This document shows positions 13,996 through 18,882 of a DNA stretch of 19,514 bases, piece by piece; the stretch's first letter is position 1, and every line of letters begins with the position of its first letter. The position numbers and the translations under genes are program-made. Source of the DNA: Candidatus Thorarchaeota archaeon (lineage in GTDB: Archaea > Asgardarchaeota > Thorarchaeia > Thorarchaeales > Thorarchaeaceae); NCBI GenBank assembly GCA_016840855.1, contig JAEORO010000086.1, positions 1 to 19,514 on the forward strand, read 5' to 3'. The notes under the pieces are model-generated. The model was not told the DNA's origin and did no database searches. It worked only from the letters and a program-made list of their open reading frames with translations.

Positions 13996-14871
13996 CTAGA
14001 ACTGCTCTAGTGCTCCTTTTCGCCGTACAAAACGTTCAGTGTATCGAAACATTAAGGCGCCAACTGTAAAGAAGATGATGTCTAGAATTATTAGAGCTAC
14101 AACTGCTTGTGCGACCCCCTGATAGGCAAGTCCATTCATCAAGAACCCTCTAAATGCTTCAGTGCTCCAGGTGAGAGGAGATGCATTGGAAATGTACTGT
14201 AGTATAGGTGGAAGTACTGAGATTGGATAAGCCATCGGAGCTACTAGTAGTAAACCACTGGTTATGAACTCCACAATCATCCAACCTTGCTTAGCCAACA
14301 AAACAATGCACGTGATTGCAAATGCGACTCCTTGGAGACCGATAATAGTAAGGGCAATTATGCCTAGTGCAGGTAAAATACCCCAAATATTCAAAGTCAC
14401 ACCAAAGAATAGTATGGCGGCAGAAAGCTGCAACATCACGCCCAATCCTCCATGTTGAAGGTTATGCAACATAGATCCCCAAACCAAGGTACTTCTACCC
14501 ATTGGAGTAGTCATGAGAGTTTCAAGTGTTCCTGCGTTTTGTTCTCTCCTCAATGAGAAACCAGTCCCCCACATGAGACTAATTGTTAAACCGATAATGG
14601 ATGTTCCTATGGCAATATAGGTCACCCAGTCCAATGTTCCAGCTAAATCATTAAGAACAACCGACTCGGAACCTCCAGCTACTGCTGAACCAGTGATCAG
14701 CATTGGAATGAACCAAAGAAAAGGCATGACAATGAACCAAAGCACACTCAATGGATAGCTCAACTCAATCTTCCATATATTGATTGAAATTGCCCATGCA
14801 GCTCTAGCTTCTGATCTTACACCTTTTCTAGTCCACATCCTTTGAAATTCTTCGCTCTCCTGATATGTCAT
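13996..14871 (-). CDS. ABC-2 type exporter permease (second)
   Basis: REQNAGTLETLMTTP, YPISVLP, SPLTW motifs and about 6 TMs. Start moved to ATG 14871 (GGAGG SD, 1 nt after the upstream stop) from the overlapping 14955. Confidence 0.9.
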   Translation of the reverse strand: MTYQESEEFQRMWTRKGVRSEARAAWAISINIWKIELSYPLSVLWFIVMPFLWFIPMLITGSAVAGGSESVVLNDLAGTLDWVTYIAIGTSIIGLTISLMWGTGFSLRREQNAGTLETLMTTPMGRSTLVWGSMLHNLQHGGLGVMLQLSAAILFFGVTLNIWGILPALGIIALTIIGLQGVAFAITCIVLLAKQGWMIVEFITSGLLLVAPMAYPISVLPPILQYISNASPLTWSTEAFRGFLMNGLAYQGVAQAVVALIILDIIFFTVGALMFRYTERFVRRKGALEQF

Positions 14872-14872
14872 T

Positions 14873-15772
14873 TTAGAATCCTCCCATACTTCCACGTTCT
14901 TTTGTCCAATTCTCGCCCCATCTGAATGCAAGTATACCAATCGTCCAGAATCCAATAATTAGTCCTAGCATCCAAACAGATGCTTGTAGGAATGAGAATG
15001 GCTCAAACACTCCTGTGATAGCGAGCTCTCTAATTGATATGATTGCAATTGTCGATGGCACCAGAACTGCTGCATACCTTGCCGCAGCTGGTAGAGCTTG
15101 AAGTGGGTATGTTATTGGTGAGAGAACATATGTCATGTTCGAGATTAACTCTGTCAAGACACTTGGATCTTTGAACACAAGTATCAATCCTGCAATCAGG
15201 AAGCTAAATCCATAGAGGGCAAAAACCATCATGGTCAGCATAATGACTATTGGTGCTACCATTGTGAATGCATAGGTGACACCAAATAGTGCCGAAGATA
15301 TAGTCAACAACACGCAGGCTGAGAATGTGCATTGCAATGTGTCAGAGAATGCTGCACCCACTAGGATGCTAATTCTAGGTACTGGTGTCACAAAGAGTGG
15401 TTCCAAGGTACCTGAGAATTGTTCCCAGCGGAAGTTATTGCCCACTGACCAGATGCTCTTGTCCACATACTGATAGACAAATACTGCAATGATTGAGAAT
15501 GTGATAAAGTCCTGAAATCCAGATAGCTCAGTGAAGTGCTGACTGGTTCCAGGTCCTGCAATCGCAATCATCATGAGTATATACGGTGCATACCATAAGA
15601 GGGGCAGAATTCCCCAGATCAGAAAGTTTGCTGGATACCGTATCGCAATTCGTAGGTTTTTTAATGCGAAGACCTTTGCTGCTTGCCAGTCCATCAGTCT
15701 GGGTCTAAAGCTCCTGAGGTAAACGCTCTCAACAGCTCCAGACTCTTCTTGCGTTGTATCTACGATTGTCAA
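14873..15772 (-). CDS. ABC-2 type exporter permease (first)
   Basis: WEQFSGTLEPLFVTP, YPLQALP motifs and about 6 TMs. TTG start overlaps the ATPase stop (TTGA). Confidence 0.9.
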   Translation of the reverse strand: MTIVDTTQEESGAVESVYLRSFRPRLMDWQAAKVFALKNLRIAIRYPANFLIWGILPLLWYAPYILMMIAIAGPGTSQHFTELSGFQDFITFSIIAVFVYQYVDKSIWSVGNNFRWEQFSGTLEPLFVTPVPRISILVGAAFSDTLQCTFSACVLLTISSALFGVTYAFTMVAPIVIMLTMMVFALYGFSFLIAGLILVFKDPSVLTELISNMTYVLSPITYPLQALPAAARYAAVLVPSTIAIISIRELAITGVFEPFSFLQASVWMLGLIIGFWTIGILAFRWGENWTKERGSMGGF

Positions 15773-16761
15773 TCCTCAATCCTCCTCCCAGTCAGTTTCA
15801 TGAAAACATCATCCAGAGTAGGTTCTTTCACCTCAAAGTGTTCAACCTTAACTCCTGGTGTCTGATGCATCATGTTCAGTAGTCTGTAAGCAAGTTCATA
15901 GCCATCCTCTGCAGTCACAATGAGCTCAGAGTGTCCATTTCTCTCTGTTGAGGATGCGGACATCACCATATCCATACTCTTTATGCTCTCAATATCAGGA
16001 GTCCCTACAACCTTCATGTGAAGGCTATCGTAATGTCTGACCTCTTCTTTGAGTTCCTTGGGTGTACCCAAGCTCTTTAGCTCGCCCTCATTTATCAGAG
16101 CGATTTTATCACACAAAAGGTCCGCTTCATGCATGTAATGCGTTGTCAGCAATATCGTCCTATCTCGCAAGGAATTCCGGATATACATCCTCAGGTCTGT
16201 TGCGAAAGTTGGATCAAGGCCTTGAGTTGGTTCGTCTAGGAGTAAAATTGGTGGGTCATGTAGAAGTGCTCGAGCGAAGACTATTTTCATGCGCATTCCG
16301 TGTGACAAGTTTTCAGCCTTCTCATCTGCTTTGTCTAAAAGCCCCATTCGACCCAAAAGGTCGTCTGCTCTCTCCTTTGCCTCACTGTGTGACATTCTGT
16401 ACAGCTTAGCAAAGAAGATCATGTTCTCTCTCGCGCTAAGTTTCCAATAGATTGAGCGCTCGTTACCCTGACACACGCCCATCGATGCTCTGGCGTATGT
16501 TGACTCCTTTAGGACATCATATCCATTTAATTTAGCAGTCCCTGACGTAGGTAAGACTAGAGTCGCTAGACATTTGATTAGAGTTGTTTTGCCCGCTCCA
16601 TTTGGTCCCAAAAGGCCGTAGATTTGACCTCTCGGAATATCCATTGTAATGGACTTGAGCGCCTCAACTCTCGTTTTCTCTACTGGGACGACAATTGCTC
16701 GCCTTCTGATGCTGATGAAGGTTTTTGAAAGGTCATAAATTTCTACAGCGTTTTGATTCAA
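15769..16761 (-). CDS. ABC-2 (DrrA/NodI-like) exporter ATP-binding protein
   Basis: GLLGPNGAGKTT, LSHGM signature, LLLDEPT.GLDP, TTHYMHEAD, C-terminal EPTLDDVF. TTG start with GGAGGT at 16775-16770. Confidence 0.93.
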   Translation of the reverse strand: MNQNAVEIYDLSKTFISIRRRAIVVPVEKTRVEALKSITMDIPRGQIYGLLGPNGAGKTTLIKCLATLVLPTSGTAKLNGYDVLKESTYARASMGVCQGNERSIYWKLSARENMIFFAKLYRMSHSEAKERADDLLGRMGLLDKADEKAENLSHGMRMKIVFARALLHDPPILLLDEPTQGLDPTFATDLRMYIRNSLRDRTILLTTHYMHEADLLCDKIALINEGELKSLGTPKELKEEVRHYDSLHMKVVGTPDIESIKSMDMVMSASSTERNGHSELIVTAEDGYELAYRLLNMMHQTPGVKVEHFEVKEPTLDDVFMKLTGRRIED

Positions 16762-16764
16762 CGT

Positions 16765-16911
16765 TTAATACCTCCCCCAAGTCGGGTGAGAGTTTTGGTG
16801 TTCGTTCACATAGCTCATAATATACACTCGGATGATAATCTACCCGAGTGAGAAAGAATCGCTCGGGTATCAAACCCGCATATGTTTCGTGAGCATGCTG
16901 AACACCTACTC
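16765..16911 (-). promoter_or_regulatory. Highly structured 5' leader (candidate cis-regulatory RNA or attenuator) of the ABC-2 operon
   Basis: Long-range arms GAGT.GGTGTTC/GAACACC...ACTC and GCTCA/TGAGC. Inner competing helices CGGGT/ACCCG, TACCCGAG/CTCGGGTA, CACTCGG/CCGAGTG. A final CCC/GGG hairpin abuts the SD. Confidence 0.6.
16870..16896 (-). CDS. Putative leader peptide uORF MLTKHMRV
   Basis: ATG CTC ACG AAA CAT ATG CGG GTT TGA, with AGGTG 6 nt upstream, the same SD spacing as the larger genes in this window. Translation unproven. Confidence 0.4.
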   Translation of the reverse strand: MLTKHMRV

Positions 16912-16922
16912 CGTGCGGTTCG

Positions 16923-16934
16923 TTATATGTATAA
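16923..16934. promoter_or_regulatory. Symmetric TTATA-TG-TATAA core, candidate bidirectional TATA for the divergent ABC-2 and EamA units
   Basis: Reads TTATA on both strands and is flanked by the inverted repeat CGTGCG (16912-16917)/CGCACG (16946-16951). Confidence 0.5.
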
Positions 16935-17045
16935 GAATTTTACCACGCACGCGAGGACCTTGTGTTTTCTAGAGAATGTTCCAAAATATCGCCTGTTGTG
17001 CGCATTCCGATATTGTCTTAGGTGAATCTTCGGGCTCCTCACCTT

Positions 17046-17951
17046 ATGCAGCTAGCCCCGGATATGGTTATTGGTTTAGCAATTGGATTACTGGGTTCAT
17101 CACTCTATGGCCTTTCAGTTGTTGCATACCGTTCGCAAGCCCGGGAAATCCATCCTATTGCAGTGAGCACTATCAAAATGTGGATTGCCTTACCTTTGAT
17201 GGTGGTCGTAACTCTTCTTTTACCTGGATTGGAGGCGGCATTTCTTCCACTAAGCTCAGTTCTCTTACTTTCTGCTTCTGTTCTTCTTGGTGCAGTTATA
17301 GCAGACACAATTTATCTATGGAGTCAGGCACGAATTGGGGTTTCTTACGCATTTCCAATTGCTATGTCTTTCCCCATCATTACATTCTTTATGACGGTAG
17401 GATTCCTTGGTGAAGATCTCATCCTATCTAGACTTGCTGGTGCTATAATCGCTGTCATTGGTGTTATTCTGATTTCAAATGAACAAAACCGAAATCAGAA
17501 ATCTCATGATCCGACCCTGAAACTAGATATAGCCGGCATTTTCGGGGCAATCATAACAGCCATACTTTACGCTGCTGGAACCACAATACTTCAGGTTGGT
17601 ATTGAGGGGGTTGATCCAATCGCTGGCAATCTAATTCGAATGGTAGTTGGTTCAATCGCATTTGTTCCTATGGTCGCTGTTGCGAGACTGGGTGGAATGT
17701 CTTTGCCTTCAAAACAAGCCACGATTCGAGTAGTTATAGCTGGATTCTTTGGAATGGGACTAGGATCATTGTTCTATGTCATGGCAGTAGCTATGATTGG
17801 AGCTACAATAATGTCAGTCATTGCATCAACAGCTCCACTCTTTGCAGTACCTGTTTCTGTTCTGATACTTAAGGAGAAAGTGACCTCTACTGCAGGAGTT
17901 GGAATCTTGGCTACTATTGTCGGTGTGAGTCTTGTTGTTTTAGGTATCTAG
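17046..17951 (+). CDS. EamA/DMT family transporter (about 10 TM, two repeats)
   Basis: Two repeats with IG.S.A..I....P and LGE/LKE.....G......G motifs. Start is ATG 17046 or GTG 17022. Confidence 0.9.
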   Translation: MQLAPDMVIGLAIGLLGSSLYGLSVVAYRSQAREIHPIAVSTIKMWIALPLMVVVTLLLPGLEAAFLPLSSVLLLSASVLLGAVIADTIYLWSQARIGVSYAFPIAMSFPIITFFMTVGFLGEDLILSRLAGAIIAVIGVILISNEQNRNQKSHDPTLKLDIAGIFGAIITAILYAAGTTILQVGIEGVDPIAGNLIRMVVGSIAFVPMVAVARLGGMSLPSKQATIRVVIAGFFGMGLGSLFYVMAVAMIGATIMSVIASTAPLFAVPVSVLILKEKVTSTAGVGILATIVGVSLVVLGI

Positions 17952-17952
17952 A

Positions 17953-18882
17953 TTATTGTGGCGCGTCGGTCAACGTTAAGTAGCTTTCAAAGACGTCATT
18001 ACTCCTTTGGAACCTTACCATGAGTTTGGTTCCGACCTTCTTACGCATCACTCTGCTTCTCAAGTCCTCCATTCCCGAAATATCCTCATTGTCAATTGCG
18101 ATGATTACATCCCCTGGTTGTAGTCCCATATCCTTCGCAGGTCCTATAGGAACTTCCATCAGAAGTGCTCCTTCATCTACATGTAGATTATAGTGAGCTG
18201 CCATACCTTTGTTCAGGGTAACACCCACGATTCCCATCCATGGAGTACGAACTGTTCCTGTTTGCACTAATTCATCGAAGATTGCTTTTAGTGAATTTAC
18301 TGCAATGGCAAAGCCAATACCTTGACTCCAAGGAATCATTGCAGTAGGAACTCCAATCAACCTGCCTGATGAATCGACAAGTGCACCGCCACTATTTCCA
18401 GGATTGATCTGGGCTGATGTTTGAATAAGTCCTTCAAGAAAGGACTCTTGACTCTGAATTGTTCTATCAATAGCACTGACCATGCCAAAGGTTACTGTTG
18501 ACCCAAGACCCAATGGATTACCTATAGCTATTGCAAGTTGTCCAACTTTTAGTTTTCCAGAATCCCCCATTTCGATGGGATTTAACTTCTGAGCCTCAAT
18601 CTTCAAAATAGCAAGGTCTCTTAGTTTAGATTGTCCAACCACGACTGCTTTGAATGTCCTTCCATCATATAGTGTTACATCCACATCTCTAGCTCCCTCA
18701 ATAACATGTGCATTTGTGACAATGAACCCTTTATCAGTTATAACAACCCCAGAGCCTTGTCCTTTGACTGGCACAACTTGAGAAAACTGTGTTCTTGCTA
18801 ATCTAGTGGTCGTAACACTGACCACACTAGGTACGACTTCATCTACTATCTCAATCATTTTCTTCTCAAGTTCTAGAAACAT
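17953..18882 (-). CDS. htrA: HtrA/DegP-family serine protease with one PDZ domain and no signal peptide or TM
   Basis: GSGV, TNAHV (His), DLA (Asp), IQTSAQINPGNSGG (Ser), and a PDZ with PWMGI and GLQPGDVI. Confidence 0.95.
   Translation of the reverse strand: MFLELEKKMIEIVDEVVPSVVSVTTTRLARTQFSQVVPVKGQGSGVVITDKGFIVTNAHVIEGARDVDVTLYDGRTFKAVVVGQSKLRDLAILKIEAQKLNPIEMGDSGKLKVGQLAIAIGNPLGLGSTVTFGMVSAIDRTIQSQESFLEGLIQTSAQINPGNSGGALVDSSGRLIGVPTAMIPWSQGIGFAIAVNSLKAIFDELVQTGTVRTPWMGIVGVTLNKGMAAHYNLHVDEGALLMEVPIGPAKDMGLQPGDVIIAIDNEDISGMEDLRSRVMRKKVGTKLMVRFQRSNDVFESYLTLTDAPQ

Follow-up and report, generated by a model that had tools for sequence, protein, structure and literature searches.

What does the long, folded leader do that precedes an ATP-binding cassette (ABC) exporter operon in a Candidatus Thorarchaeota archaeon, a member of the Asgard archaea? 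The window analysed here, a stretch of 19,514 nucleotides (nt) of contig JAEORO010000086.1, includes a 260-nt spacer between two divergent genes, one for an EamA-type transporter (start at 17022, plus strand) and one for an ABC ATPase (TTG start at 16761, minus strand), and the leader of the ATPase gene occupies ~150 nt on the minus strand (16762–16911). An earlier note, written from the sequence alone, had described in this leader a promoter, a short upstream open reading frame (uORF) with its own Shine-Dalgarno (SD) sequence, a series of alternative helices and an SD hairpin ahead of the weak TTG, and had proposed that a ribosome or a ligand switches the helices to expose the SD of the ATPase gene. 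All of these elements can be located in the sequence, and the comparative evidence speaks well for the uORF as a genuine unit of translation maintained by selection. We see about an even chance that the leader is a conserved, cis-regulatory, uORF-based attenuator of the exporter operon that senses translation, and that acts, probably, while the transcript is being made. Its components, in the order of transcription, are as follows.

16929–16944, minus strand: promoter resembling a B recognition element (BRE) and TATA box, GGTAAAATTCTTATAC, implying from promoter geometry a transcription start site (TSS) at ~16907 ± 3
16903–16907, minus strand: SD of the uORF, AGGTG, 6 nt before the ATG and at or adjoining the predicted mRNA 5′ end
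16900–16906, minus strand: 5′ arm of helix P1, GGTGTTC, overlapping the uORF SD (inverted repeat I4)
16870–16896, minus strand: uORF of eight codons plus TGA, encoding MLTKHMRV, with its ATG at 16896
16864–16878, minus strand: hairpin A (segments 1 and 2), CGGGT (16878–16874) with ACCCG (16868–16864), found in the alifold consensus
16851–16858, minus strand: T-rich tract, TTCTTTCT, 12 nt past the uORF stop
16825–16850, minus strand: hairpin B (9 bp), segment 3 CACTCGGGTA (16850–16841) and segment 4 CCGAGTG (16831–16825)
16797–16817, minus strand: 3′ arms of the enclosing helices, TGAGC (16817–16813) and GAACACC (16803–16797, the 3′ arm of P1)
16770–16792, minus strand: hairpin of the main SD, CTCACCC/GGGGGAGG (CTCACCC ... 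GGGGGAGGT), containing the SD GGAGGT (16775–16770)

Hairpin A has the last two sense codons of the uORF as its 5′ arm and the stop codon within its loop. Segment 3 pairs with segment 4 as CACTCGG/CCGAGTG (inverted repeat I5) or alternatively with segment 2 (16869–16862) as TACCCGAG/CTCGGGTA, an inverted repeat of 11 nt (I1) that is part of the minimum free energy (MFE) structure. The enclosing helices are formed by TGAGC with GCTCA (16894–16890) and by GAACACC with GGTGTTC (16906–16900), and the inverted repeats named in the earlier note were recovered mechanically as I1, I4 and I5. A 166-nt stretch has an MFE of −50.9 kcal/mol, compared with −37.8 ± 3.7 kcal/mol for 200 dinucleotide shuffles (z = −3.57, with no shuffle as low), and the stability of the domain is −0.283 kcal/mol per nt versus −0.226 in control genes.

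Comparison with related leaders gives a strong signal for both the uORF and P1. We assembled 45 orthologous leaders, comprising the window and 44 further loci, from metagenome-assembled genomes (MAGs) of Candidatus Thorarchaeota and, for a few, of Hermodarchaeota or Promethearchaeota; the ATPases are 67–96% identical (73–82% among 13 that were aligned). Forty of the 45 share a composite consisting of a TATA-like element, ~24 nt, GGTG, 5–8 nt, a start codon, 5–9 codons and a stop, situated 116–172 nt ahead of the ATPase start, and in every one of the 40 the TATA-like element lies 40–15 nt upstream of GGTG. The uORF has eight codons in 28 of these leaders, five in seven, six in three and nine in two, and it starts with ATG in all but one, a GTG (L078) whose frame was aligned via locus L011 of the same genome. 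The uORF SD, the enclosing arms and the main-SD hairpin are likewise kept in orthologous leaders, which bears out that part of the earlier note.

Within the genus, 16 full-length orthologs align from the promoter to the TTG at 73–74% mean column identity; the promoter motif is kept in all 16, and the sequence farther upstream is unrelated. The 8-codon uORF occupies the same site in each (15 ATG starts and one GTG) and ends with TGA in eight, TAA in seven and TAG in one. Codons 2–6 vary, yet there are no indels inside the frame, whereas indels do occur in the surrounding loops. On a wider scale the leaders form groups A to E plus six singletons. All 20 group A leaders have an 8-codon uORF, with the peptide MLTxxxR[EDV]; the peptides are MKTEYLK[EGR] and MDTLKRKE in group B, MK[HLS]R[DE] in group C, MFIRQ and MFLRR in group D, and MSDKHYVL and MSDEYIIL in group E, and those of different groups are unrelated. 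A covariance model built from the 16 genus leaders (R1) scores 112–167 bits with group A, 27–37 with group B and <20 with the others, although the ATPases are still 73–82% identical.

The composite is specific to this operon, being present in the 260 nt upstream of none of 41 non-orthologous DrrA-like loci. Both strands of the window's own genome (2 × 3.36 Mb) hold 259 combinations of GGTG, ATG and a short ORF, five of them with a TATA-like element, and among those five the window locus alone has a gene >100 nt downstream. A second ATG near nt 90 of the leader, used as a control, is found in 13 of the 20 group A leaders only, with ORFs of 2–21 codons. A metagenome scan, for which generic Walker-type peptides were picked from an alignment of 13 orthologous ATPases, yielded no ortholog among 80 kept loci, all of which are other ABC ATPases with 29–45% identity.

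The second ATG also has a pattern of its own. In 10 of the 20 group A leaders it opens a frame of 16–21 codons (16762–16821 in the window, minus strand, beginning ~55 nt before the main start) that ends just before, on (in a TTGA overlap) or just after the main start. We rejected it as a second uORF, as it is missing or very short in the other group A leaders.

The signals at the uORF start are those of its genome, which uses SD-led initiation heavily. GGTG peaks genome-wide at −12 to −9 (197 versus ~20 per 4-nt bin among 2445 ORF starts), and the uORF GGTG stands at this preferred distance from its start codon. The uORF SD is complementary to the 16S rRNA 3′ end GGATCACCTCCT, which was taken from two same-genus genomes; no 16S rRNA was found in the window's own MAG. 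GGAGG-type SD motifs in this genome peak at −16 to −9 (273 and 346 versus ~27 per 4-nt bin, or about tenfold). A calibration of TATA-to-start distances in the genome's own genes gave a weak peak at −44 to −41 (32 versus 8–22 per bin), but this did not hold in a stricter set of 1037 genes and is not used as evidence.

P1 is a long-range helix that joins the 5′-terminal SD region to a site ~100 nt downstream. Separate consensus folds for groups A, B and C follow the same plan, with P1, one or two strong inner hairpins and then the main-SD hairpin, and groups A and C both have a small hairpin with the uORF stop in its loop, of a different sequence in group C (GGGA/TCCC). The P1 arms differ between groups, being GGTGTT/AACACC, GGTGTTCGA/TCGAACATC and GGTGGCTC/GAGCCGCC, and in 28 of 39 leaders the best 3′ partner ends 31–40 nt short of the main start. 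In these 39 leaders the uORF SD has a median unpaired probability of 0.01, compared with 0.27 for 250 matched genes from the same genome that were folded with identical geometry, only 7% of which are as low as the leaders' median. In an alignment of 26 leaders from groups A and B, pairing holds in 97.5% of cells, whereas slid partners give at most 51%. The helices are predicted from this conserved pairing and from the differences between groups, covariation being weak.

How might such a leader act? Archaeal transcription is described in passages of one paper as terminating at poly(U) stretches or via aCPSF1/FttA, and polymerase-coupled ribosomes are proposed there to prevent premature termination (PMC8116511); we favour a co-transcriptional attenuator that senses translation. 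The T columns of the T-rich tract are invariant in alignments A1 and A2, and such a tract, rich in T or pyrimidines, lies 9–20 nt past the uORF stop in groups A, C and D and in L101, L099, L108 and L109 (7 of 11 lineages). The 3′ arm of P1 would be made ~100 nt after the uORF SD and, once transcribed, would lock it. Because of this lock, the uORF would be open to ribosomes almost exclusively while the transcript is nascent, so that the leader would report whether a ribosome closely trails RNA polymerase. A ribosome at the last uORF codons would melt hairpin A, and its front edge would reach the T-rich tract, where the polymerase would be sitting. Read-through would be favoured by a ribosome coupled in this way, and without one, pausing or premature termination (either intrinsic or through aCPSF1/FttA) would lower expression of the pump. 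The full-length mRNA would then adopt a locked form in which the SD hairpin stands alongside P1 and hairpins A and B. What is sensed could be the general status of translation, or a translation inhibitor that the pump exports. We infer the pausing or termination at the T-rich tract, and this output step is the weakest part of the explanation. In a bolder form, which is possible but which we hold tentatively, the leader would be the first ribosome-mediated attenuator of Archaea, a single-round co-transcriptional sensor in which the proximity of ribosome and polymerase at the T-rich tract decides transcription of the exporter, perhaps tuned to the inhibitors exported.

Several observations weigh against this account. 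The T-rich tract is no canonical archaeal terminator: it is often interrupted or only T4, the tract in the window has no run of four T, and group E, L106, L110 and L086 have none at that place. T5 after genes shows a modest enrichment in the window's own genome (13% versus 5%, 1696 long ORFs), and archaeal RNA polymerase is not known to pause in response to hairpins. Five of the 45 leaders have no uORF at the usual place (L083, L102, L103 and L151, together with L098, where it is ~250 nt upstream). The peptides are not conserved and therefore no stalling motif can be named; among the 40 uORF-bearing leaders no drug- or metabolite-dependent stalling peptide is conserved, and the R or K at position −2 that is common to groups A–D may be imposed by the RNA, through the G-rich arm of hairpin A. 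Folding predicts no P1 in group D and L114 and a weak or unclear one in L077, L099, L106 and L110, and P1 duplexes taken singly exceed shuffles by a modest margin only (p 0.003–0.95). Covariation, which the earlier note had suggested examining, is weak: the pairing is conserved as described above, but in the 26-leader alignment (A4), which was itself fitted to the model, one of 21 pairs has a double change, a count reached by 198 of 500 shuffles. Finally, the TSS at ~16907, translation of the uORF and the ends of the transcript are predictions from the sequence.

Other explanations have to be set against the co-transcriptional one, beginning with that of the earlier note, in which a ribosome stalled on the uORF re-pairs segments 1–4 and frees the ATPase SD and TTG, as in attenuation of the erm/cat type. 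The window does have mutually exclusive 1:2/3:4 and 2:3/1:4 pairings, the SD hairpin is kept with differing outer stems in groups A, B and C, and the main start is the weak TTG in groups A and B and usually TTG overall. However, dominance of the alternative conformer is not general: 2:3 plus 1:4 prevails in four of 19 group A leaders, the window included, and is at ≤0.07 in 13. The further pairing TCGGGT/ACCCGA between segments 3 and 5 is similarly available in the window, but many orthologs carry AACCCC or CACCCT there. We modelled the ribosome by equilibrium constrained partition-function folding, with the footprint forced single-stranded and either the start codon in the P site or the stop codon in the A site, in 37 leaders (L088 and L119 of group A were left aside). 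The main SD's probability of being unpaired changed by no more than 0.02 in 27 of the 37 and fell in most of the others, contrary to the expected unmasking; the values for the window are 0.08, 0.09 and 0.08. The SD hairpin is moreover local and has no strand in common with segments 1–4, which also counts against unmasking. Nor is the masking special, as the leaders' values of 0.00–0.41 are ordinary beside those of 250 other GGAGG SDs in the genome (median 0.27, with 19% at ≤0.1). Taken as a whole, erm/cat-type control is very unlikely here. Ligand sensing, the other input that the note had raised, would make this a ligand- or protein-binding structured leader, riboswitch-like or autoregulatory, with P1 as the switching helix and the uORF as expression platform or incidental, and this we regard as unlikely. 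The P1-closed domain is unusually stable, many unpaired positions are invariant within the genus, and P1-like helices over an SD are common in riboswitch expression platforms; yet the inner sequence diverges between genera whose ATPases are 73–82% identical, which makes an aptamer unlikely, and the architecture and the uORF survive without a conserved core. The element also precedes one operon only, and an Rfam scan of 16500–17200 on both strands at E ≤ 10 gave no family matching the leader, its three hits being chance matches to small nucleolar or small RNAs (E ≥ 1.6) that all lie outside it.

It is also conceivable, if quite unlikely, that there is no conditional regulation at all, and that the 5′ end buried in P1, the masked SD and the TTG start provide constitutive low expression or stabilise the mRNA, the uORF being tolerated or recruiting ribosomes. 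One fold dominates at equilibrium in most orthologs, both SDs are predicted to be paired, and neither an inducer nor a stalling motif has been identified, all of which would fit; but were the uORF neutral, its start, frame length, SD spacing and promoter distance would not be preserved across leaders that do not align, and the second ATG of these leaders has not been preserved. There is, by comparison, virtually no prospect that the leader is a miniature inverted-repeat transposable element (MITE), another repeat or a chance palindrome, an interpretation for which the earlier note had advised counting genomic copies. The stem is long and imperfect and relatives contain two partial extra copies, but copy number and context already refute this reading: the window's own 3.36-Mb MAG contains the spacer a single time, and in 22 of 28 genus genomes R1 detects one copy each, without exception at this operon. 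Of the three observations that the earlier note had named as refuting its proposal, two, an unconserved leader and a dispersed repeat, are thereby contradicted. What is found beyond single copies in the genus genomes amounts to two decayed or partial duplicates and one remnant, and the extra copies are either decayed or part of a segmental duplicate that includes the first ~25 ATPase codons.

These additional copies differ in their state of preservation. One that is well preserved (L059 1501–1646, minus strand, equivalent to G004:C82:12578–12723) has promoter, leader and a uORF encoding MLKILTRE, followed by only ~25 ATPase codons and then unrelated sequence, and it precedes a gene for a large secreted protein; lying 2.7 kb upstream of the intact operon, it looks like the remnant of a segmental duplication. 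A decayed orphan (L060 897–1043, plus strand, in G024:C141; 87 bits) has no same-strand gene behind it and has lost the 5′ arm of hairpin A, the main SD and the start, and its 8-codon frame is still open (MFILLILE). At the third site (L058 1501–1625, minus strand, in G011:C22) the promoter, a uORF encoding MLNTKQRE and the leader as far as the T-rich tract remain, and the lack of an ATPase ortholog in G011 (best match 6.9e-55) suggests deletion of the operon.

The genes presumably controlled by the leader are arranged as follows.

15769–16761, minus strand: DrrA-like ABC ATPase with TTG start at 16761, matching PF00005 (7e-32) and PF13732 (1.1e-8)
13996–15772, minus strand: two ABC-2 type permease genes (14873–15772 and 13996–14955), with PF01061 matches and drrB subfamily matches below the cut-off

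By domain content this is a DrrAB-type ABC-2 exporter, with an ATPase that has a DrrA-like C-terminal domain and two ABC-2 membrane proteins, in agreement with the earlier assignment; the ATPase scores 275.6 bits against TIGR01188 (drrA, NCBIfam), below the cut-off of 312. On the other side of the spacer are the EamA-family transporter gene (17022–17951, plus strand) and a gene for an HtrA-like serine protease with a PDZ domain (17953–18882, minus strand). The upstream neighbour varies among orthologous loci, indicating that promoter, leader and operon move as one unit. The ATPase start is ambiguous in group C, where (L093 1180–1200) an in-frame ATG follows GGAGGT by only 1 nt and a CTG occupies the site at which other groups carry TTG. 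A 46-codon ORF with a TTG start (16733–16873, minus strand), overlapping the leader and the ATPase start, is probably spurious and not a gene, because indels in the leader alignment are not multiples of three.

Control by leader peptides and uORFs is textbook knowledge in bacteria and eukaryotes. According to a 2021 paper, no case of transcription attenuation or antitermination is known from archaea (PMC8448881), and the open-access papers and bioRxiv preprints searched contain no description of this leader, which would be new for archaea, with a mechanism that we infer. As a phylogenetically supported test case (a uORF in 40 of 45 leaders) in the archaeal lineage closest to eukaryotes, with an anatomy laid out as uORF, helix locking the uORF SD, T-rich tract and masked main SD, it would allow tests of whether transcription-translation coupling serves gene control in archaea.

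The closest known system in function, the bmrB leader upstream of bmrCD in Bacillus subtilis, described in part of one paper as controlling an ABC multidrug exporter by ribosome-mediated transcriptional attenuation (PMC4191407), shares with this one a short leader ORF and a structured leader before ABC exporter genes, as well as the idea that the state of the ribosome on the leader decides the fate of the transcript. The present leader differs in its archaeal host, its uORF of 5–9 codons, the lack of a canonical terminator and the predicted locking of the uORF SD by P1. The bmrB system reportedly has a canonical intrinsic terminator, opposed by an anti-terminator, and its leader peptide is longer. 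As for mutually exclusive helices of such a kind, the window has the alternative pairings described above, of which the alternative prevails in four of 19 group A leaders, and group B shows helices that cross. In ermC, ermB, cat and cmlA a short uORF with its own SD and overlapping helices accompany a masked SD of the resistance gene, and all of these features recur here, but SD unmasking is not seen in folding and no stalling peptide is conserved. The trpL leader of enteric bacteria resembles this one in that a hairpin overlaps the leader ORF at its end, where it could keep polymerase and ribosome in step, and in that the decision would be co-transcriptional; there are, however, no runs of regulatory codons here and no terminator hairpin right before a U-run, and P1 has no counterpart in trpL. 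In bacteria, uORFs such as tnaC and toiL (upstream of topAI) control Rho-dependent attenuation. As in these systems, and in the competition between ribosomes and aCPSF1/FttA proposed in passages of PMC8116511, translation of the uORF would shield nascent RNA from a termination factor, but no archaeal example of the tnaC/toiL-topAI type is documented. Among archaea, the ribosome profiling (Ribo-seq) studies of Methanosarcina mazei and Haloferax volcanii list small ORFs of 5′ untranslated regions, in the sections concerned, only as candidate uORFs (PMC11456600, PMC10117724), and these, as presented there, come without conserved structure or mechanism. Both they and eukaryotic uORFs have in common with this leader a very short uORF upstream of the main ORF on one mRNA, and in contrast to the eukaryotic case, in which ribosomes scan, initiation here would be SD-led. 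The leader would also offer a view of how an SD-led, eukaryote-like ribosome handles a short uORF.

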